A stretch of 64,000 nucleotides of DNA from Cyclobacteriaceae bacterium (GTDB lineage: Bacteria > Bacteroidota > Bacteroidia > Cytophagales > Cyclobacteriaceae), in contig OZ245789.1 of the NCBI GenBank assembly GCA_965228045.1, forward strand, positions 3,522,616-3,586,615, given 5' to 3'. Shown in pieces: positions 30,190 through 42,304 of the stretch. Numbering within the stretch: the stretch's first letter is position 1; each line of letters opens with the position of its first letter. The notes beneath the pieces were generated by a model. It ran no database searches and was not told the origin of the DNA. It saw nothing but the letters and a program-made list of their open reading frames with translations. The position numbers and the translations under genes were made by a program.

Positions 30190-30271
30190 AGCTAATTTTT
30201 TAAATGCTTATTGTCGAATATAAATGTTTATAAACATAGTTGTGTCTTTTGTTTCTATCTCTTTTAACCCC

Positions 30272-31429
30272 ATGAATTCGCAATCGCACACCAGGGAGCG
30301 CCAGATCACGCTTAAGCATCTGTATTTCGAGGATCAAAAGATGATCGGAATCAAATTTTATCCTGATAAAGTCATCCAGCACATCATCAGGCAGCTACCC
30401 GAACCGAGGTGGAGCGAAAAATACGGGATGGTCTACATCAAAAACAATCCTGAAAACCTGAAGGCTATTTTTGATGGGTTCAAAGGTGTTTGCTGGATCA
30501 ATTGCACCCATTTCTATACCAATCGCCCGGTTAATTTCCATAATACACCATTGGACATAGACGGCTACAGGAAGCGAAAATCTATTCCGGGACGGAGAAT
30601 GGTGCCGGAGGAGTTTTTACAGAAGCTGGAGATTCGAAAATATGCTTTCAACACGGCACGATCCTACATCAGTCATTTTGAGAAGTTCATGAATCACTAT
30701 GGTCAGGTACAGAACCTGATGCAATTAGGCGAACATGAAATCAACGAATACATCAGTCACCTTTTCCGGTCAAAACGTTCGGAGGCATTTATTAAAATGT
30801 CTATCAATGCTATCAAATTCTACTATGAAGTGGTGATGGAGATGCCCAACCGTTTTTACGCTATCAAACAGGTTCAACAGAAGGAATCCCTGCCGAAAGT
30901 CCTTTCAAAGAAAGATATCAATAGAATGATCGATGTGACCACTAATATCAAGCACAAGTGCATTATAAGCCTGTTATACTCATCAGGGCTAAGGAGGCAG
31001 GAATTGCTAAATCTGGAAATAAGTGATATTGACAGTGTGCGAATGACGATCACGGTCAGAGAGGGCAAGGGTAGAAAGGACAGGATCACCCTTCTAAGTC
31101 ATCGCCTTTTGGAGCAGCTCAGAATGTATTATAAATCACACATGCCAAAGAAATTCCTTTTTGAAAGCGCAGCCGGAGAAAGGTATAGCGGATCTAGTGT
31201 AAGGCAGATAGTGCACAAAGCCAGTAGAAAAGCAGGCATCAGACAGAAGGTGACCCCCCACATGCTACGACATAGTTTCGCCACCCATTTATTGGAATCC
31301 GGAACAGATTTGAGGCATATTCAGACCCTTCTTGGGCATTCCACGACCAGAACAACGGAAATATATACCCATGTGAGTACGACACATTTTAATCAGATCA
31401 AAAATCCATTAGATTTGGAGGACATATGA
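30272..31429 (+). CDS. tyrosine site-specific recombinase (Xer-like catalytic domain, ~110-aa N-terminal extension, no IntI insertion)
   Basis: Start taken at MNSQSH. LLYSSGLRRQELLNLEISDID, REGKGRKDR, HMLRHSFATHLLESGTDLRHIQTLLGHSTTRTTEIYTHV (R-H-R-Y set). Only about 50 aa lie between KDR and HMLRH. Confidence 0.85.
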   Translation: MNSQSHTRERQITLKHLYFEDQKMIGIKFYPDKVIQHIIRQLPEPRWSEKYGMVYIKNNPENLKAIFDGFKGVCWINCTHFYTNRPVNFHNTPLDIDGYRKRKSIPGRRMVPEEFLQKLEIRKYAFNTARSYISHFEKFMNHYGQVQNLMQLGEHEINEYISHLFRSKRSEAFIKMSINAIKFYYEVVMEMPNRFYAIKQVQQKESLPKVLSKKDINRMIDVTTNIKHKCIISLLYSSGLRRQELLNLEISDIDSVRMTITVREGKGRKDRITLLSHRLLEQLRMYYKSHMPKKFLFESAAGERYSGSSVRQIVHKASRKAGIRQKVTPHMLRHSFATHLLESGTDLRHIQTLLGHSTTRTTEIYTHVSTTHFNQIKNPLDLEDI

Positions 31430-32081: not shown

Positions 32082-32744
32082 ATGGATGAAGATGAAATAA
32101 AGATACTCGATCAATTCATTGCGGAACTCAACCAGAACCTTGAAAAGAATCTTCCCAAGATTGCTGCTCAGTTTGTGAACGACTATGAATCCCCTGAATT
32201 TGACCCTCTGAGGGATGAGATAACCAAATGTTTGTTATGTGATTTTTGCCAAGCTGCAATAACACTAACGAACCATCTAACTGAGAATTTCCTAAAAACA
32301 ATGCTGGTTTACCATGAGTCTCTTGAGAACGGTGAACACAACGACCTAACAACACTATTTTCGAAAGGGCTAGACATCTATGACAATATGAATTTAGTCG
32401 ATACGATTGATAAGGCCTGTGAACATCAAATCATCAATGAAGAGCAGAAAGCAACGCTTCACAAATTTCGTCATGACTTCAGGAATCCCTACTCTCATGC
32501 GAGTAAGCGGAAAATCTTCAAAGACTCCAAAATTCGAACACAAAAGCTATCCCTGAACAAGGAATTGAAGTACGAACTGGAAGAACCGAAAGAATCATTG
32601 GCATCTAACCTTGTATTTGCACAGGGACTAATTCAGACTCTTCTAAGCAAACAAATTGCATTTGACTACTTCAAAACTGTGGACAAAATTATCAGAGATG
32701 CCTTGGCTGAATTCTATAAAAACAACGATAAAACATCCACATAA
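32082..32744 (+). CDS. cassette 1 ORF, hypothetical (contains an RNxxxH, HEPN-like motif)
   Basis: Start moved to MDEDEIK, because the track start at 31971 lies inside the palindrome and upstream of the GTT core at 32054. Motif FRHDFRNPYSHAS. Confidence 0.5.
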   Translation: MDEDEIKILDQFIAELNQNLEKNLPKIAAQFVNDYESPEFDPLRDEITKCLLCDFCQAAITLTNHLTENFLKTMLVYHESLENGEHNDLTTLFSKGLDIYDNMNLVDTIDKACEHQIINEEQKATLHKFRHDFRNPYSHASKRKIFKDSKIRTQKLSLNKELKYELEEPKESLASNLVFAQGLIQTLLSKQIAFDYFKTVDKIIRDALAEFYKNNDKTST

Positions 32745-32976
32745 CAGACGCTGATCGGGCATATGTCTTAGTGCTTTCTGGCTGGTTTCAGTGGAACTCG
32801 ACCGTGATATCTGCCGCTGAGAAACGGCTGTGCTTTCCACCATCTTTTGCTCGCAGGAGTTTTTGACTTTCAGAACGCAGTGCCATTTAGAACCGTTGTG
32901 AGCTTCGGCAGATTTCACTACATTCGTGCTATTCACTAGCTGCGGGACATACGCCCGATAGCTGGTCGTTAGCACC
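32737..32976 (+). repeat. attC-like structured repeat of cassette 1
   Basis: Starts CCACATAAC (the stop codon lies inside it) and ends GTTAGCACC. Outer arms CAGACGCTGATCGGGCATATGTC / GACATACGCCCGATAGCTGGTCG and inner arms GTGATATCTGCCG / CGGCAGATTTCAC are inverted repeats. Confidence 0.7.
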
Positions 32977-33572: not shown

Positions 33573-33757
33573 GGTGCTAACAGACGCTGATCGGGCATAT
33601 GTCTCAGTGCTTTCTGGCTGGAATCAGTGCAACTCGACCGTGATATCTGCCGCTGAGATATGGTAGTGCTTTCTACAGACTTTTGCTCGCAGGATTTTTT
33701 GATTTTCAGAACGCAGTGCCATTTGGAACCGTTGTGAGCTTCGGCAGATTTCACTAC
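33573..33757 (+). repeat. attC-like repeat of cassette 2, 5' part (interrupted by IS110 element)
   Basis: Starts GGTGCTAAC. Nearly identical to 32746-32926 up to ...CGGCAGATTTCACTAC, then diverges into the IS. Confidence 0.7.
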
Positions 33758-35108
33758 TTCCTATGTTACAAAACGATTACCAAAGGATCATTTATTTTGG
33801 TAAGTAGTGGGGAGAAATGAGAGCAAATTCGCTAGTAAATAGTCTAAAGACATATTCACACTAAGGTATCGCCTCATTTCTTTCTTTCTCTTAGAGTTTA
33901 AACAGAATGTAAAGCGGGATTTTCCCCAGCTAGAATATCAGACAGGAGGTAAAACGAAGGGAGACATCCGCTATTATCTTTTTATTCAACCCTTTGAAAA
34001 TGAAAACTATTAAGCAAGTCGTTGGTGTGGATGTAGCTCAGAATGAGTTGGTCTGTACCTTTGGTCAGTTGTATGAAGATTTAAGTATTGGCCGGTATAT
34101 TCACCGGGTTTTTGATAACAACCTTAAAGGATTCAAGAACATTATTCGGTGGATTCAATCGGTCAAGTCCGATGATTTATCAATACAAATAGTAATGGAA
34201 CCCACCGGGGTATATCATGAGAAATTTGCTCATTGGCTCTTTGATCAAGCTCACAATGTTGCCATTGTACTACCTAACAAAGTCAGTAATTATGCCCGGA
34301 CTTTATCTATAAAAACAATCACTGATAAAACGGCTTCCCAAACTATTGCTCAGTTTGGATTGGAGAGAAAGCTGGATCTATGGAATCCTCCAAAACCTGT
34401 TTTCCGAACCATGAAGCAGTTAACCAGGGAACGTGATCAGATTGTGGCAGAGCGAGTTACGATCAAAAATCAGATCCATGCTGAAAATGCTGAAGCATAT
34501 CCTAATCCAAACTCTCTTAAGCGACTCAAAGCCAGAAAGGCTCTCCTATCAAAACAAGAGCAAGAGATTAAGAACGAAATCCAACAATTAGTAAAAAGTG
34601 ATTTGGAGATTGAAAAAGACATTGGATTGATGACTACTATCCCAGGAGTAGGTAATCTCACAGCAGCTATTGTTCTGGCTGAAACAAATGGTTTTGAACT
34701 TATCCGCAACAAAAAGCAATTGACTAGTTATGCGGGTTTGGACGTCAGAGAAAAGCAATCAGGAACTTCAGTCAAAGGAAAACCCAGGATATCCAAACAA
34801 GGAAACAGATTTTTAAGAAAAGCTATGCACCTGCCATCATTATCAGCCATTCGACATTGTCATATGTACAAAAGCAACTTTGCAATGCATGTCGGTAAAC
34901 ATGGTATCAAAATGAAAGCAGCAGTGGCCGTTCAGCGTAAAATTCTGGAACTGATGTATGTGCTTTATAAAACCAAAGTCCCATTCGACCCATATTATCA
35001 ATTTAAAAAGGGACAACAATCCGATGTTGATGCCCCTTTACAATCTAGCTTATGCTGATTTTACTTAAAGTTAGAAAATATCATTTCTATCTTTGGTTTT
35101 TAACACAG
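33758..35108 (+). mobile_element. IS110-family insertion sequence (copy 1) inside an attC-like repeat; ends approximate (+/-10 bp)
   Basis: The flanks rejoin into one attC-like repeat when compared with 32926-32976. About 240 nt of non-coding 5' end and about 50 nt of 3' end. Confidence 0.65.
34000..35058 (+). CDS. IS110-family (DEDD) transposase/recombinase
   Basis: MKTIKQVVGVDVAQ (N-terminal GxDxxK-type start), EPTGVYHE, and the C-terminal IPGVGNLTAAIVLAE...SYAGLDVREKQSG module. Confidence 0.85.
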   Translation: MKTIKQVVGVDVAQNELVCTFGQLYEDLSIGRYIHRVFDNNLKGFKNIIRWIQSVKSDDLSIQIVMEPTGVYHEKFAHWLFDQAHNVAIVLPNKVSNYARTLSIKTITDKTASQTIAQFGLERKLDLWNPPKPVFRTMKQLTRERDQIVAERVTIKNQIHAENAEAYPNPNSLKRLKARKALLSKQEQEIKNEIQQLVKSDLEIEKDIGLMTTIPGVGNLTAAIVLAETNGFELIRNKKQLTSYAGLDVREKQSGTSVKGKPRISKQGNRFLRKAMHLPSLSAIRHCHMYKSNFAMHVGKHGIKMKAAVAVQRKILELMYVLYKTKVPFDPYYQFKKGQQSDVDAPLQSSLC

Positions 35109-35600: not shown

Positions 35601-35839
35601 GCGCTCAACAATGTGTATGGACGCATGTGCGAACTGAGCATTTAGCCGGTTTCTGTGGAACTCGACCGTGAATCAGCCGCTGAAGATACTTTTCTGCTTT
35701 CTACCAATCTAAGTTCGCAGGAGTTTTTAATCTTCTGAACGCACTCTCTTTGATACTTTGGAAGCACCGGCAGATTTCATTATTTTGCTGCTATTAGCCA
35801 TTGGGGCGCACACAGCGCCATACACAGGCGTTGGAGCGC
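35601..35839 (+). repeat. attC-like structured repeat of cassette 3
   Basis: GCGCTCAACAATGTGTATGGACGCATGTGCG ... CGCACACAGCGCCATACACAGGCGTTGGAGCGC (inverted arms). Contains the CGGCAGATTTCA internal module. Confidence 0.7.
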
Positions 35840-35850
35840 ATCACTGCATC

Positions 35851-36462: not shown

Positions 36463-36472
36463 ACGCGCTCCA

Positions 36473-38314
36473 ATCGAGTAGACGGCCGTGAGCCATAAGC
36501 CCACGGTGCGCCTCTCACACCACCCAGCGTACGGTTCTCGTACTGGGCGGTTCATTGAATTTCGGGTTGAGTTTTAAGGTAATAGGAAAGCATCGACTTG
36601 TACCCTCGCCTTCTAAGTCTGGACAGTGTAATAGTGGTCCGTAGAATCGGACTTTGAGCCACAAACCAGCCACCTCTACGGGTACGACTGTATGCATAGG
36701 CTCTATCCTTATCCAAATCTAGCCGGATCAGATTCTTACACTTCCTATCAGGCTTCTTCCAGTGATGCCAGATGCAGTATCTCAGACGATTCCTCAGCCA
36801 TTCGTCTAGTGCTTTGAGTTTGGCTGAAATGTTCGCTAAGCGAAAGTTGTTCACCCATCCTCGCCACACTTCGGCAAGCTGCTGTAAACGCTCATCGAAA
36901 CTCATCGGTCTGGTCTTCCTGGAAATGTCCTTCAGTTTGCGCTTGAGGTTTCCCCACGCTTTCTTTGATACTACCAGCTGGTATTGCCCTTTCATCCCCT
37001 TCTTATACACTGCGGCAAAACCGTGCCCCAGCAACTCGAAGTTTACAGGTCTGCGAATGCCTGATTTCTCCCTATTGATAGGTAATCGCAATGTGTCCCT
37101 AAGGAACTTGTAGATGGCATTACCTATCTCACGGGCTTCTGCTTTTGACTTGGCATAGATGCTGAAGTCATCGGCATAACGGACATATCGCAACCCTTTC
37201 CTTGCCAACTCCTTATCCAGCTCATCCAGCAGGATATTGGACAGTAGTGGGCTAAGTGGTGATCCTTGCGGCATCCCTTTACGGCGTTTGTGCAATCTAC
37301 CCTTTATCCAGATTGGTGCTCTCAGCCATTTGCGGATCAGCCGCAGGGTTGTTGGGCATTTTACCCGTTTGTAGATCAGGTGTAACAGCTTCGCATGGTC
37401 TACTTCATCGAAGAACCCTTTAAGGTCTATGTCTACAATATCCTGATACCCATTGTTGATGTAGTTCAGGGCTTGGGTCACTGCCTGTTGGGTGTTCTTT
37501 TCCGGCCGAAAACCATAGCTAAATGGCTCAAAGTCTAATTCAAACTTTGTGGCCAATACCTGGCTAACCGCCTGCTGTAACCAGCGGTCTGTTAAGTGTG
37601 GGGATTCCTAGTAATCTAGTCTTCCCATTCCCCTTGGGTATTTCTATCCCAAGGATAGCATTAGGTACATACGTGTGGTTCAGGACTTCCGTGATGATCT
37701 TCTCACGGTTGGCTTCCAAATGTTTTGGGAGTTCCCTGACTGTCATCCCGTCAATCCCTGCAGCTCCTTTGTTGTTTACCACCTGTCGGCAGGCCACATA
37801 AAGGTTCTTACGTTTTAGTACTTCTGCTATCATAAAACTTAATTCCCTATCCCTCTAAGGACAGGCTCTGATCCTATCCGAATCGGGACGCAATTCATTG
37901 TTCAGTCCTTCCCTGACTTGTGAGTCTTCCATCTCTTTCAATGGCTCGTGGCTGTCAGGTACTACGACTTCTGCTGACTTCTCGATCCGCATCTCGTGCG
38001 GTCCGAGACCTCCCCGGGTAAGACACTTATCCTTCTACTGACTCCCGCCGTATCTACCAACCGAAGTTTGTTGACCATGTACTTTACAGTGATGTGCCTG
38101 CTTGTACACTTCGGTTGGCCTCTGTATACGATTCCTGTTCGTCAGTGCCAGTATTTGCAGTCCTGCTTCCCTGCCTGCGGCAGGCAGGCTTCAGTGCTGA
38201 CCTCACGGTCAACCACCTTGCAGCTTGCTAGTGACTTCTGTCAACTTCGTCACACGGATCTTTCATCCGCTGGATATTTTGGCTATCTTCATAGCCGTGC
38301 CATGCCGGGCACAC
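36473..38314 (-). mobile_element. group II intron, class C-like, copy 1 (IEP frameshifted)
   Basis: Minus-strand 5' end GTGTGCCCGG and 3' end ...CTACTCGAT. Domain V-like hairpin CCGCCCAGTACG-AGAA-CCGTACGCTGGGTGG near 36520-36555. About 99% identical to 39108-40951. Confidence 0.75.
36552..37833 (-). pseudogene. group II intron reverse transcriptase/maturase, disrupted
   Basis: Two ORFs (36552..37556 and 37564..37833) correspond to the intact 426-aa ORF of copy 2. C is replaced by AG at 37595-37596 (net +1 nt). Confidence 0.8.
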
Positions 38315-38429
38315 ACAGACACTAAAATGAATATGCGAACTGAGTCATTTGAAAGGACAATGCAGAGAGGAAACTTTGGTGCTTTTAGCAACTGGGACGC
38401 ATACTCATTTTAGTTGAGCGTTACCTGTC
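38315..38429 (+). repeat. attC-like repeat of cassette 4, 3' part (the 5' 8 nt are at 36465-36472, left of the intron)
   Basis: Rejoined 5' end is GCGCTCCA+ACAGACACTAAAATGAATATGCG. It pairs with CGCATACTCATTTTAGTTGAGC. Ends GTTACCTGTC. Confidence 0.65.
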
Positions 38430-38477
38430 AGCACTGCATGGCGAACAGTAAACATGAATTTTTCGTAACTTTATCTC

Positions 38478-38717
38478 ATGGATGCTAATATGAATCTTTC
38501 TTTCGCTCAAATACTTGAACTGGTTAGGAACTTACCAGGTGAACAGAAGATCAAGATTTCACAAGAACTTGAGAAGGAGACTATTGGGTCTAAACTGACA
38601 GAACTTCTAACTGCATTCCGAACTGACAAAATTTCGATGAATGAGATAACTGCTGAAGTTGAGCAAGTCCGCCAAGACCTTTATGACAAACAAACATCGA
38701 ACAAAGGTCATAATTGA
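38478..38717 (+). CDS. cassette 5 ORF a, putative antitoxin
   Basis: 79-aa acidic ORF overlapping the start of the PIN toxin gene. Confidence 0.5.
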   Translation: MDANMNLSFAQILELVRNLPGEQKIKISQELEKETIGSKLTELLTAFRTDKISMNEITAEVEQVRQDLYDKQTSNKGHN

Positions 38718-39108
38718 CACCAACATTTGGATTAGTTATCTAATAGGTATTCAACTCGGTGGACTAACCGAACTCCTATCAACGAGACAAATTGAACTCG
38801 TCCTATCCGAACAACTTTTGACAGAGATTAAGGAAGTAACAGCAAGAAAGAAATTTCGAAAATATTTCGGTGAACATGAGGTGAATGAACTCTTAAAACT
38901 CATGGAGATTTTAGGAACGAGGTTTGAGGTTATTGAGTATCCCAATATTTGTAGAGATGCCAAGGATAACTTCTTGCTTGGCTTAATCAGAGCTTCTCAA
39001 GCTGACATACTTGTAACTGGTGACCAAGATCTTCTGGAACTGAACCCCTTCGAAGGAACCGAAATAATCGAGGCGGGCCAACTGTTGGAGAAAATAGCCG
39101 ACAGGTAA
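38683..39108 (+). CDS. cassette 5 ORF b, PIN-domain toxin
   Basis: KVIIDTNIWISYL, RDAKDNFLLGL and ADILVTGDQDLL (the acidic PIN residues). ATG at 38683 chosen over the TTG at 38659. Confidence 0.8.
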   Translation: MTNKHRTKVIIDTNIWISYLIGIQLGGLTELLSTRQIELVLSEQLLTEIKEVTARKKFRKYFGEHEVNELLKLMEILGTRFEVIEYPNICRDAKDNFLLGLIRASQADILVTGDQDLLELNPFEGTEIIEAGQLLEKIADR

Positions 39109-40951
39109 TCGAGTAGACGGCCCCACCAGCGATAACTGATGGGGTGCGCCTCTCACACCACCCAGCGTACGGTTCTCGTACTGGGCGGTTCATTGAATTT
39201 CGGGTTGAGTTTTAAGGTAATAGGAAAGCATCGACTTGTACCCTCGCCTTCTAAGTCTGGACAGTGTAATAGTGGTCCGTAGAATCGGACTTTGAGCCAC
39301 AAACCAGCCACCTCTACGGGTACGACTGTATGCATAGGCTCTATCCTTATCCAAATCTAGCCGGATCAGATTCTTACGCTTCCTATCAGGCTTCTTCCAG
39401 TGATGCCAGATGCAGTATCTCAGACGATTCCTCAGCCATTCGTCTAGTGCTTTGAGTTTGGCTGAAATGTTCGCTAAGCGAAAGTTGTTCACCCATCCTC
39501 GCCACACTTCGGCAAGCTGCTGTAAACGCTCATCGAAACTCATCGGTCTGGTCTTCCTGGAAATGTCCTTCAGTTTGCGCTTGAGGTTTCCCCACGCTTT
39601 CTTTGATACTACCAGCTGGTATTGCCCTTTCATCCCCTTCTTATACACTGCGGCAAAACCGTGCCCCAGCAACTCGAAGTTTACAGGTCTGCGAATGCCT
39701 GATTTCTCCCTATTGATAGGTAATCGCAATGTGTCCCTAAGGAACTTGTAGATGGCATTACCTATCTCACGGGCTTCTGCTTTTGACTTGGCATAGATGC
39801 TGAAGTCATCGGCATAACGGACATATCGCAACCCTTTCCTTGCCAACTCCTTATCCAGCTCATCCAGCAGGATATTGGACAGTAGTGGGCTAAGTGGTGA
39901 TCCTTGCGGCATCCCTTTACGGCGTTTGTGCAATCTACCCTTTATCCAGATTGGTGCTCTCAGCCATTTGCGGATCAGCCGCAGGGTTGTTGGGCATTTT
40001 ACCCGTTTGTAGATCAGGTGTAACAGCTTCGCATGGTCTACTTCATCGAAGAACCCTTTAAGGTCTATGTCTACAATATCCTGATACCCATTGTTGATGT
40101 AGTTCAGGGCTTGGGTCACTGCCTGTTGGGTGTTCTTTTCCGGCCGAAAACCATAGCTAAATGGCTCAAAGTCTAATTCAAACTTTGTGGCCAATACCTG
40201 GCTAACCGCCTGCTGTAACCAGCGGTCTGTTACTGTGGGGATTCCTAGTAATCTAGTCTTCCCATTCCCCTTGGGTATTTCTATCCCAAGGATAGCATTA
40301 GGTACATACGTGTGGTTCAGGACTTCCGTGATGATCTTCTCACGGTTGGCTTCCAAATGTTTTGGGAGTTCCCTGACTGTCATCCCGTCAATCCCTGCAG
40401 CTCCTTTGTTGTTTACCACCTGTCGGCAGGCCACATAAAGGTTCTTACGTTTTAGTACTTCTGCTATCATAAAACTTAATTCCCTGTCCCTCTAAGGACA
40501 GGCTCTGATCCTATCCGAATCGGGACGCAATTCATTGTTCAGTCCTTCCCTGACTTGTGAGTCTTCCATCTCTTTCAATGGCTCGTGGCTGTCAGGTACT
40601 ACGACTTCTGCTGACTTCTCGATCCGCATCTCGTGCGGTCCGAGACCTCCCCGGGTAAGACACTTATCCTTCTACTGACTCCCGCCGTATCTACCAACCG
40701 AAGTTTGTTGACCATGTACTTTACAGTGATGTGCCTGCTTGTACACTTCGGTTGGCCTCTGTATACGATTCCTGTTCGTCAGTGCCAGTATTTGCAGTCC
40801 TGCTTCCCTGCCTGCGGCAGGCAGGCTTCAGTGCTGACCTCACGGTCAACCACCTTGCAGCTTGCTAGTGACTTCTGTCAACTTCGTCACACGGATCTTT
40901 CATCCGCTGGATATTTTGGCTATCTTCATAGCCGTGCCATGCCGGGCACAC
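39108..40951 (-). mobile_element. group II intron, class C-like, copy 2 (intact IEP)
   Basis: Same termini as copy 1. Inserted at the PIN stop codon inside GACAGGTA^AC. Confidence 0.8.
39190..40470 (-). CDS. group II intron-encoded reverse transcriptase/maturase (no endonuclease domain)
   Basis: RT motifs GIPTVTDRWLQQA, SYGFRP, DIDLKGFFD, GMPQGSPLSPLLSNI and YVRYADDF, followed by a maturase X region. 426 aa. Confidence 0.9.
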   Translation of the reverse strand: MIAEVLKRKNLYVACRQVVNNKGAAGIDGMTVRELPKHLEANREKIITEVLNHTYVPNAILGIEIPKGNGKTRLLGIPTVTDRWLQQAVSQVLATKFELDFEPFSYGFRPEKNTQQAVTQALNYINNGYQDIVDIDLKGFFDEVDHAKLLHLIYKRVKCPTTLRLIRKWLRAPIWIKGRLHKRRKGMPQGSPLSPLLSNILLDELDKELARKGLRYVRYADDFSIYAKSKAEAREIGNAIYKFLRDTLRLPINREKSGIRRPVNFELLGHGFAAVYKKGMKGQYQLVVSKKAWGNLKRKLKDISRKTRPMSFDERLQQLAEVWRGWVNNFRLANISAKLKALDEWLRNRLRYCIWHHWKKPDRKRKNLIRLDLDKDRAYAYSRTRRGGWFVAQSPILRTTITLSRLRRRGYKSMLSYYLKTQPEIQ

Positions 40952-41175
40952 ACATGTGCTATGGCGAATGGCCAAACTGCCTATCGGATATTTCAATGCA
41001 ACTCGTCCGTTTCATCTGCTGCCGGGGCAACAGATGTGGAATTTGCCAGAGCAAATCCCGGAGGAGTGGATTAACAGAACGCATGGCCATTTGAACCGTT
41101 GTGAGCTTCAGCAGATTTCACTACTTTAGGTGCTGTTTAGAAAGGATATGGCCACATCGCCATATCTGATCGATA
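40952..41175 (+). repeat. attC-like repeat of cassette 5 (lacks a recognisable GTT core at its 3' end)
   Basis: ACATGTGCTATGGCGAATGGCC ... GGCCACATCGCCATAT inverted arms. Shares GAACCGTTGTGAGCTTCAGCAGATTTCACTAC with the cassette 1 and 2 repeats. Confidence 0.6.
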
Positions 41176-42229
41176 TCTATGGTAAAATCAAGCCATTTCA
41201 ACTTTTTTAAATACAATTTTATCCTGATAGGGTGTTCCACGTTTGACCACTGCCACGATCCGATGCAATAGTTTGTTTCTGATCGCATTAAGGATGGTCA
41301 TTTTACCTTTACCTTCTTCACGTTTTCGTTGATAATATTCCTTTAACTCCGGACAATGTCGAATGGCGCTCATGGCAGCCATGTGCAAATGATACTTTAA
41401 GACTTTGTTAGCAAAACTTGAGGTCCCTGGTGTTCCTTTGATGCTCGAACCACTACTGTACTCAAATGGAGCTACACCACAATAACAAGCCAGTTTCTTG
41501 CCATCCAACATTCTCGTAAATCCATGAGTGTAAACAATCAGATCTGTGGCCAGCACCTTACCCACACATTTCACTGAGGTAATGAGTTCATACAGTGCTC
41601 GCACCTCTCGGTCCATCTGGATTACTTCCAACATTTTCTCTTCAACTTTCTTCAATGACTTGGCCAATCCTTCCAGGGCCGTCTTACTAAGTCGTTTCAT
41701 CTCCCTGGCTGCCTTTTTATCGAAGTGTTCGGTCTCACTGATGGCCAGTTCCTGACACTGTTTACTTTTCAGTAATCTGGCTCTCAGGCGCATCAGGTAC
41801 TGTAATCGCTGCAATGTAGGATGTGTGAGTTTTACCAGCTTGGCCTGATGGTGGTGGACCAAAGCAAATCTGGCAATGCGCTCAGCATCGATCTTATCAC
41901 TTTTGCCTCTGACTAAACCAATACTACGCTTGATATGTAGAGAGGACTCCAACCAGACCTTACCACCACGACTTATTAAGTACTTGACCAGGTTCTGGGT
42001 GTAAATACCCATGTGCTCCATGCAAAACAATGTCCTTTCATGATCATCGTTCCCATGTTGTTTCATCCATCTTTTCAGCTTGGTATAACCTTCTGAGGTA
42101 TTTGTCAGGACGGTGGTACATTGACGCTGTGATACCATCTCGATCATGCATACGTCCATACTTTCTTTACTCACATCTATCCCTACAATAAAGGGATATA
42201 TCAATTGTGGAGTTGATTCTTTCTTCATT
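41176..42229 (-). mobile_element. IS110-family element, copy 2; essentially ORF only, ends not definable
   Basis: The transposase ORF is bounded within about 12 nt by the attC-like repeat on one side. On the other side it meets the higB remnant directly. Confidence 0.45.
41188..42228 (-). CDS. IS110-family (DEDD) transposase/recombinase
   Basis: PFIVGIDVSKESMDV, MEHMGIYT and the C-terminal VKCVGKVLATDLIVYT...CYCGVAPFEYSSGSS module. Divergent from copy 1. Confidence 0.85.
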   Translation of the reverse strand: MKKESTPQLIYPFIVGIDVSKESMDVCMIEMVSQRQCTTVLTNTSEGYTKLKRWMKQHGNDDHERTLFCMEHMGIYTQNLVKYLISRGGKVWLESSLHIKRSIGLVRGKSDKIDAERIARFALVHHHQAKLVKLTHPTLQRLQYLMRLRARLLKSKQCQELAISETEHFDKKAAREMKRLSKTALEGLAKSLKKVEEKMLEVIQMDREVRALYELITSVKCVGKVLATDLIVYTHGFTRMLDGKKLACYCGVAPFEYSSGSSIKGTPGTSSFANKVLKYHLHMAAMSAIRHCPELKEYYQRKREEGKGKMTILNAIRNKLLHRIVAVVKRGTPYQDKIVFKKVEMA

Positions 42230-42304
42230 AACGACCAATGGAGAATTATTTTCCTATGGGAAGATGGAAATGCCAGTAAAGTTGAAATTATTGATTATCA
42301 CTAA
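42227..42304 (+). pseudogene. higB: 3' remnant of higB (RelE/ParE-superfamily killer)
   Basis: INDQWRIIFLWEDGNASKVEIIDYH* matches the C-terminal ~25 aa of HigB toxins. The N-terminal ~65 aa are missing at the IS junction. Confidence 0.65.

Follow-up and report, generated by a model that had tools for sequence, protein, structure and literature searches.

Two nearly identical group II introns of class C (IIC) lie antisense to the genes of an integron-like cassette array in a Cyclobacteriaceae bacterium, each inserted at the equivalent base of a different attC-like site. They are found in a stretch of 64,000 nucleotides (nt), hereafter the window, which covers positions 3,522,616 to 3,586,615 of contig OZ245789.1 (assembly GCA_965228045.1); coordinates are those of the window unless genome positions (C1) are given. 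We read the two elements as recent copies of a mobile class C intron that homes to the folded bottom strand of attC-like sites, and assign this reading a probability of roughly 0.85. The habit itself is already known from the class C introns termed IIC-attC; it is the lineage of this intron and the platform that hosts it that appear to be new.

A pair of class C introns

Both copies, read directly from the sequence, have the 5' end GTGTGCCCGG and the 3' end CTACTCGAT (Table 1). They thus start with GUGUG and end with CUCGAU, in line with the GUGYG start and AY end of group II introns, and the 3' end of copy 2 reads CUACUCGAU. A bulged A in domain VI (39114 in copy 2; 36479 in copy 1) lies 7 nt from the 3' end. 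The Rfam family group-II-D1D4-3 (RF02001) gives each copy 99.9 bits (gathering score 32); reference class C introns, among them introns of the Kl.pn.I3 type and others from Firmicutes, reach 130-143 bits with it. The match to Rfam Intron_gpII (RF00029), which holds domains V and VI, spans the full model and ends exactly at 39108. The catalytic triad of domain V is CGC in place of AGC, a variant noted for some introns (PMC4424553).

The intron-encoded protein (IEP) of copy 2 is a reverse transcriptase (RT)/maturase whose Pfam domains are RVT_1 (5e-42) and GIIM (1e-13) and nothing else, and it scores 369 bits against TIGR04416, the NCBI model of group II RT/maturases (cut-off 300). The solved structures nearest to it are class C RTs, those of E.r. 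(7uim, 2e-92) and GsI-IIC (6ar1, 2e-90), whereas LtrA of class IIA (3e-36) and T.el4h of class IIB (1e-31) are far more distant. In an RT tree, the IEP falls among the sampled class C sequences, apart from two outgroups. Judged by ribozyme and protein sequence, both elements are class C introns made up of a ribozyme and an RT/maturase without an endonuclease (En) domain. The sequence-only reading of this DNA, made before any database was consulted, had suggested class C and proposed RT phylogeny as the check; the nearest structures, the D1D4-3 family shared with the references, the CGC triad and the place of the IEP in the tree all agree with it. Its coordinates, strand, intron ends, domain V and branch-site A were likewise accurate.

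The two copies differ in 17 of 1845 aligned columns in pairwise alignment (99.1% identity), and 13 of these differences are clustered within 20 nt at the distal tip of the domain VI hairpin. Of the other four, T/C occurs at intron positions 466 and 1575 and CT/G at 719-720. The latter is a frameshift in the RT gene of copy 1 (near 37595), which is broken into open reading frame (ORF) pieces at 37564-37833 and 36552-37556. The sequence-only reading had credited both copies with an RT/maturase lacking an endonuclease; this holds for copy 2, with its intact frame of 426 amino acids (aa), but the frameshift in copy 1 had gone unmentioned. The ribozyme of copy 1 looks intact, although the tip of its domain VI (36488-36504) has been exchanged. 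From the intron ends outward, the flanks of the two copies, which lie 2.6 kb apart, are unrelated on either side, save for TGT/T (a slash marks the point of insertion or, in attC cores, of the cassette boundary). Because only four differences lie outside the domain VI tip, and yet the flanks are unrelated, the two copies are on this comparison independent insertions and recent copies of one mobile intron.

A search of the whole genome for further copies gave, besides these two, only a 5'-truncated relative without an ORF, on the minus strand at C1:2,816,267-2,816,760, 0.74 Mb away. The domain VI tip and last 52 nt of copy 1 (GGTGGTGTGAGAGGCGCACCGTGGGCTTATGGCTCACGGCCGTCTACTCGAT) are 100% identical to this truncated relative, from which its domain V differs, whereas the tip of copy 2 resembles those of other members of the clade. 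The 3' end of copy 1 is thus a chimera of two intron types, which may stem from recombination, from gene conversion or from a template switch as reverse transcription began.

Insertion into attC-like sites of an integron-like array

Both introns are simple insertions at A/AC of the inverse core (R'') of attC-like sites, which on the intron strand is TGT/T. Rejoining the flanks yields GCGCTCCA/ACAGAC for copy 1 and GACAGGTA/ACATGT for copy 2, the junctions described in the sequence-only reading. With introns on the minus strand and cassette ORFs on the plus strand, the insertions are antisense and in the attC bottom strand. The full intron-strand sites are CTGT/T and ATGT/T; the first T of the IIC-attC consensus TTGT/T is not kept. 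At the first site (attC4), the part of R'' left of the intron reverse-complements GTTGGAGCGC, with which its own cassette begins (35831-35840), and the bottom strand is predicted to fold with a dG of -16.4 kcal/mol, its stem ending 6 nt (GTCTGT) before the insertion point. At the second (attC5), the corresponding part is the reverse complement of GTTACCTGTC at 38420-38429, the predicted dG is -35 kcal/mol and the stem again ends 6 nt (ACATGT) before the intron. An element of the insertion sequence (IS) family IS110 follows the G of attC5, where the TT of R' would be expected.

Uninterrupted counterparts exist for both sites. The TAA of the PIN gene (39106-39108) has as its third letter the last base of intron copy 2, and the genome has another copy of this cassette, 100% identical and without the intron, that ends GACAGGTAAC (C1:2,811,786-2,811,795). 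The stop codon is thus native and intron 2 an insertion that leaves it in place, as the sequence-only reading had noted. The attC family of the first site occurs uninterrupted as 14 copies in 14 other genomes, mostly Cytophagales, with flanks that are cassette-specific and different; its members read AAC AGAC ACTAAAATGAATATGCG ... GCGCATACTCATTTTAGT TGxxC GTT over ~109 nt. One of the 14 lies on a metagenome-assembled contig labelled Gammaproteobacteria (L153, 3837-3853), the rest being from Bacteroidota; the label may reflect either a binning error or transfer of a cassette across phyla. A joint of 39108 to 41171 in DNA sequencing runs (Logan contigs, which hold this region only in repeat-collapsed form) was considered as an intron-less allele and rejected, as it represents the second genomic copy of the cassette.

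The sites share their architecture with the attC sites of integrons, including sedentary chromosomal integrons, and of attC clusters that have no integron-integrase (CALINs). As in those systems, the cores read R'' ...AAC and R' G/TT..., the L''/L' arms are imperfect palindromes, and each cassette has the complement of its own R'' at its start, a relation that holds after G/TT in all five window cassettes. The order in every site is R''-AAC, 4 nt, L'', loop, L', 5 nt, G/TT, and the bottom strands of attC1, attC3, attC4 and attC5 are predicted to fold into long imperfect hairpins with the AAC...GTT cores readable, in keeping with the attC-like folding proposed from the sequence. The cassettes also resemble those of integrons in that they look promoterless, point in one direction and in many cases carry toxin-antitoxin pairs. 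The sites here differ in that several are far longer (~230-250 nt) and have an inner module in common: attC1, 2, 3 and 5, the long sites, share ~180 nt at 73-92% identity, where attC loops normally vary. The module is not in the short attC4 (109 nt).

At the head of the array lies a tyrosine recombinase with the Pfam domains Phage_integrase and SAM_4, and its being co-oriented with the cassettes is a further difference from integrons. It scores 223.9 bits against NF040815 (Xer-like/integron integrase), just above the cut-off of 220. However, it reaches only 191.3 bits, in two stretches, against TIGR02249 (integron integrase; cut-off 265) and 120 bits against NF011946 (cut-off 435), so that neither of these two models identifies an IntI-specific domain in the adjacent integrase. 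Homologues of this recombinase adjoin intron-bearing arrays in two other genomes. In Draconibacterium the homologue is at 1,610,065 and the introns extend across 1,574-1,609 kb; in Reichenbachiella the homologue and the introns are apparently on one contig, to judge from contig numbering. With its G/TT-bounded cassettes beside an Xer-like recombinase, the host array is, by its sequence features, integron-like.

Table 1. Positions of the introns, their parts, the host sites and associated elements (window coordinates except where marked C1)
Feature	Position	Strand	Remarks
Intron copy 1	36473..38314, read 38314 to 36473	minus	1842 nt
Intron copy 2	39108..40951, read 40951 to 39108	minus	1844 nt, intact
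RF02001 match, copy 2	40660-40849	minus	99.9 bits
RF01998 (D1D4-1) match, copy 2	40542-40635	minus	43.7 bits, permissive scan
RF00029 Intron_gpII (domains V and VI) match, copy 2	39108-39190	minus	37 bits, E = 3.6e-5
Domain V, copy 2	39158..39188	minus	CGC catalytic triad; RF00029 alignment
Domain VI, copy 2	39111..39154	minus	bulged branch-site A at 39114; RF00029 alignment and sequence
Predicted loop of exon-binding site 1 (EBS1), copy 2	40727..40733	minus	CACAUCA; loop of Rfam D1D4-3 hairpin
Predicted EBS1 loop, copy 1	38090-38096	minus	same loop as copy 2
RT/maturase (IEP), copy 2	39190..40470	minus	426 aa, YADD present, no D/En domain
Left part of attC4 R''	36465..36472	plus	GCGCTCCA/; 3' exon side of copy 1
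Rest of attC4	38315..38429	plus	AC, AGAC, L'' ACTAAAATGAATATGCG, loop, L' CGCATACTCATTTTAGT, TGAGC, G/TTACCTGTC
Left part of attC5 R''	39100..39107	plus	GACAGGTA/; overlaps PIN stop codon 39106-39108
Rest of attC5	40952..41170	plus	AC, ATGT, L'' GCTATGGCGAATGGCC, conserved ~180-nt inner module, L' GGCCACATCGCCATA, TCTGATC, G
Cassette 1			start TTATGTGG; R'' CCACATAA-C
Cassette 2			start TTAGCACC; R'' GGTGCTAA-C
Cassette 3			start TTGAGCGCA; R'' TGCGCTCAA-C
Cassette 4			start TTGGAGCGC; R'' GCGCTCCA/A-C; holds intron 1
Cassette 5			start TTACCTGTC; R'' GACAGGTA/A-C; holds intron 2
Inner module	32742-32921, 33578-33757, 35645-35786, 41000-41127		in attC1, 2, 3, 5
Tyrosine recombinase	30224..31429	plus	401 aa; head of array, same orientation as cassettes
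IS110-family elements	41171-42232; C1:2,812,016-2,813,076 and C1:2,809,111-2,810,171

The site rule in relatives and the origin of the habit

A protein-guided scan found 30 loci whose IEPs are 62-87% identical to that of the window, save for two distant matches (L031 and L032). Nearly all are labelled Bacteroidota (Cyclobacteriaceae, Reichenbachiella, Draconibacterium, Lewinellaceae, Maribacter and others), and the clade is sporadic, being present in 5 of 401 sampled Bacteroidota genomes. With their 5' ends placed by alignment and pattern, and the intron-after-intron junctions of two loci (L009 and L014) left out, all 22 distinct target-site 5' junctions end in TGT, which is the sole part they share. 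The 3' exon starts with T unless another intron abuts, with a single exception. One Draconibacterium genome carries ten copies of one intron at sites reading ATTGT, TTTGT, CGTGT, AATGT, CTTGT, TATGT and TGTGT; that only TGT is fixed among them fits an intron-binding site 1 (IBS1) of 3 bp. Upstream of the site, most relatives have a hairpin (span mostly 94-173 nt) that stops 4-6 nt short of it, so that the junctions show the stem-loop and short IBS1 without IBS2 that are characteristic of class C.

The relatives also sit in cassettes. In 14 of the 16 that could be tested, the 10-mer formed by the reverse complement of GT, T and the next 7 nt recurs 148-2467 nt downstream, against a chance expectation of ~0.1 per locus; these 14, together with both window copies, are therefore at the R'' end of a cassette. 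The sequence-only reading had made its proposal of homing to attC dependent on where other copies lie, and the relatives, at TGT/T after a hairpin and mostly at R'', speak in its favor. This emphasizes what the introns reveal of their targets: an RNA-guided retroelement whose insertions fall, in many genomes of Bacteroidota, on the same hairpin base supports the attC-like folding and behavior of these sites, and does so in a phylum in which standard censuses with IntegronFinder 2.0 find almost no integrons (bioRxiv 10.1101/2022.02.28.482270). The introns are a marker for cassette arrays that current integron finders miss.

Many relatives directly precede a further group II intron, of a different type, in Draconibacterium (L011-L015, L018 and L027), Maribacter (L026) and Psychroflexus (L030). 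The abutting intron starts GTGTGCTGTGAG, matches Rfam D1D4-2 and in one Draconibacterium locus (L014) encodes an IEP of 424 aa. Apparently the other intron was there first, and the class C intron then entered the TGT/ junction that it occupied. Loci L009 and L014 are head-to-tail tandems of the class C intron itself.

The closest parallel is with the IIC-attC introns, a monophyletic subset of IIC described by Quiroga, Centron, Leon and Roy, with members such as S.ma.I2 of Serratia marcescens and Kl.pn.I3 and its relatives, which insert into the bottom strand at R'' (TTGT/T), antisense to the cassettes (PMC3001079, PMC7923331). As references, we recovered Kl.pn.I3-type introns from class 1 integron plasmids, opposite blaIMP-4 and in a dfrA12 array, and 17 chromosomal relatives, mostly from Gammaproteobacteria. 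A Verrucomicrobiota locus (L031) tried as a further reference was rejected, since it belongs to another class (Rfam D1D4-6), and was kept as an outgroup. Of the 19 references, the 15 with both junctions readable, two of them in class 1 integrons, all insert at TTGT/TA, and the other readable junctions agree. A class C intron in Aeromonas hydrophila pR148 (L124) is arranged differently: it sits in a class 1 integron with aadA1 on one side and qacEdelta1 on the other, in the sense direction. It has the rarer, top-strand form reported once for Enterobacter cloacae (cited in PMC7923331).

Are the Bacteroidota introns then simply a deep branch of IIC-attC, so that attC homing arose once, in the ancestor they would share with S.ma.I2, Kl.pn.I3, G.s.I1 and others? 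The two groups have in common a class C ribozyme, an En-less RT/maturase, a hairpin upstream of a short IBS1 ending in TGT, and insertion between GT and T of R'' on the attC bottom strand, antisense to the cassettes. Their EBS1 loops are similar as well (GCACAUCA here, GCACAAGA in the references, which insert at TTGT), although the predicted pairing element is ACAU here and ACAA there, and here only the TGT of the 5' exon is fixed. In a maximum-likelihood tree of 44 IEPs (LG+C20), the Bacteroidota clade (support 100/100) and the IIC-attC clade (99/100) are each well supported, but in the best tree IIC-attC and the proteobacterial class C introns of the terminator type share a branch (88/95) that excludes the Bacteroidota clade, whose own stem is long (1.27 changes per column). 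The class C backbone is poorly resolved, and a single joint clade is not rejected by the approximately unbiased (AU) test (p = 0.08, log-likelihood difference 13.1). The IEP is nonetheless nearer to the RTs of Firmicutes class C introns (up to 42.6% identity) than to those of IIC-attC (36.6-38.3%). Furthermore, the introns begin with GUGUG and end with CUACUCGAU here, as against GUACG and CUACCCGAU in IIC-attC, and the protein of 426 aa lacks the N-terminal extension of ~20-25 aa that brings IIC-attC proteins to 444-451 aa. The hosts differ too, the sites here being hairpins of ~109-250 nt in arrays whose recombinase falls below the IntI cut-off. As to the internal outward promoter (Pout) of IIC-attC introns, scans of this intron detected none: sigma-70-like sites number 9, no more than the 6.3 ± 2.7 of shuffled sequence, and the Bacteroidota -7 box TAnnTTTG has no exact match in the intron, only a relaxed one at 38275 and 40912. 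By the tree, the identities, the intron ends and the protein length, membership of IIC-attC by common descent is somewhat disfavored, and we consider it unlikely without dismissing it; the Bacteroidota clade is probably a distinct lineage that works like an IIC-attC intron. Of the assignment to the IIC-attC subclass implied in the sequence-only reading, the behavior stands and the membership is doubtful, with the reservation that the AU test imposes.

It might instead be supposed that class C introns of no special kind are at work here, for which any preceding stem-loop, a terminator for instance, would do, and that their location in cassettes is incidental. Class C introns in general do target terminator hairpins (PMC4424553), and terminator-type introns such as B.h.I1, O.i.I1, GsI-IIC and E.r. 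share with the present ones the D1D4-3 family, the CGC triad, ~560 nt of RNA outside the ORF, the nearest solved RT structures and recognition of a stem-loop with a very short IBS1. Their targets, however, are intrinsic terminators with a U-tract, usually in sense orientation after genes, whereas the target here is a recombination hairpin with a fixed TGT/T, antisense to genes. No target site in the clade has a U-tract, the site is TGT/T throughout apart from the exception already mentioned, and the cassette signature of the relatives would be left unexplained. Terminator-type relatives have other EBS1 loops and follow GC-rich stems with T-runs (L035, for example, after ...GGGCTTTTTCTTTTG/); the loop of one that inserts after ...UUUUG is GCCAAUAU. 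We judge this account very improbable. About equally small is the chance that the two window copies are inert relics of one old insertion, multiplied by duplication or rearrangement of DNA in place of retrohoming. Their proximity, the broken RT gene of copy 1 and the other rearrangements of the array (IS110 insertions and a duplicated cassette) would suit such an origin. Segmental duplication is nevertheless rejected by flanks that are unrelated right to the intron ends; each copy occupies the equivalent base of a different attC, the gene of copy 2 is intact with its YADD motif, and the four substitutions or indels beyond the domain VI tip argue for recent copying.

Homing of a mobile class C intron to folded attC-like sites thus remains the reading that we prefer, and several observations count against it. 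The RF00029 match, at 37 bits, is just below the gathering score of 40. The exceptional relative (L016) has a 3' exon that starts with C and no cassette signature, so that the site rule is not absolute, and it would also suit insertion after any stem-loop. The name attC rests on architecture and not on a link between enzyme and site, because the recombinase is below the curated integron-integrase cut-off. EBS3 was not located in the intron, and none of the RNA runs with the same species label (Logan contigs) held this region. Moreover, TGT/T is available in at least five attC sites of the window, and the genome has only two full copies, so that the activity of the intron may be low.

Our literature search found no Bacteroidota class C lineage with an attC-homing habit, and no attC-like arrays with a below-cut-off recombinase at their head (191 versus 265 bits with TIGR02249). 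Should this lineage prove to be separate from IIC-attC, class C would have evolved attC homing twice, and a guide of 3 nt together with a DNA hairpin would suffice for a specialized niche.

Proposed target recognition and possible remodelling of the array

The loop GCACAUC(A/U), predicted to be EBS1, is present in all five clade members examined (the window, L009, L011, L023 and L026), and its ACA (40730-40732 in copy 2) would pair with UGU of IBS1. We infer that this pairing of 3-4 bp and the upstream DNA hairpin account for the specificity of the intron. In the mechanism that we propose, the intron ribonucleoprotein would recognize the folded, single-stranded bottom strand of an attC-like site by its long imperfect hairpin (the L box) and the 4-6 nt spacer, ending in TGT, that follows. 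The position would be set by pairing of ACA(U) with (A)UGU and by one EBS3-IBS3 pair with the following T, and at the R'' core the RNA would reverse-splice into the bottom strand between GT and T, a position that reads A/AC on the cassette strand.

Without an endonuclease domain in its IEP, the intron would depend on replication for a primer, and En-minus introns are indeed primed at replication forks (PMC4424553). By genome-wide GC skew, replication starts near 0.30 Mb and terminates near 2.75 Mb. Because the window is at 3.52-3.59 Mb, its minus strand, and with it the attC bottom strand, is the lagging-strand template, which is expected to be single-stranded and to offer primers from which DNA copying could proceed. 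The product would be an intron antisense to the cassette genes. Copy 2 should be autonomous, whereas copy 1 would move or splice only with the help of copy 2 in trans. With R'' parted from the rest of attC by 1.84 kb, recombination at an occupied site should stop, and the introns probably freeze or reshuffle cassettes in this way.

A hint of such reshuffling comes from the VapB-PIN cassette (38418-39108), which has a second, 100% identical copy in another array (C1:2,811,105-2,811,795). The identity runs from G/TT to R'' (GACAGGTAAC), the break in the window being the insertion point of intron 2, and the attC bodies that follow the two copies are of equal length (~220 nt) and unrelated in sequence. 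The pattern fits a swap of attC bodies by recombination between intron copies, although gene conversion at the conserved core could also have produced it. Leon and Roy are said to have proposed recombination between intron copies in the formation of cassettes. We suggest that Bacteroidota have an integron-like platform of their own with a class C parasite of its own, in which homing to the bottom-strand R'' (TGT/T) evolved independently of the proteobacterial IIC-attC introns and whose introns remodel arrays by swapping attC bodies. The suggestion is tentative, and we would give it somewhat less than an even chance.

The IS110-family elements, 81% identical between loci, start exactly after the G of the R' core, in place of TT, in the attC sites of both VapBC cassettes. 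They look like attC-core-specific elements of the IS110/IS1111 type. Another, different IS110 element (33758-35108) lies inside the conserved inner module of attC2.

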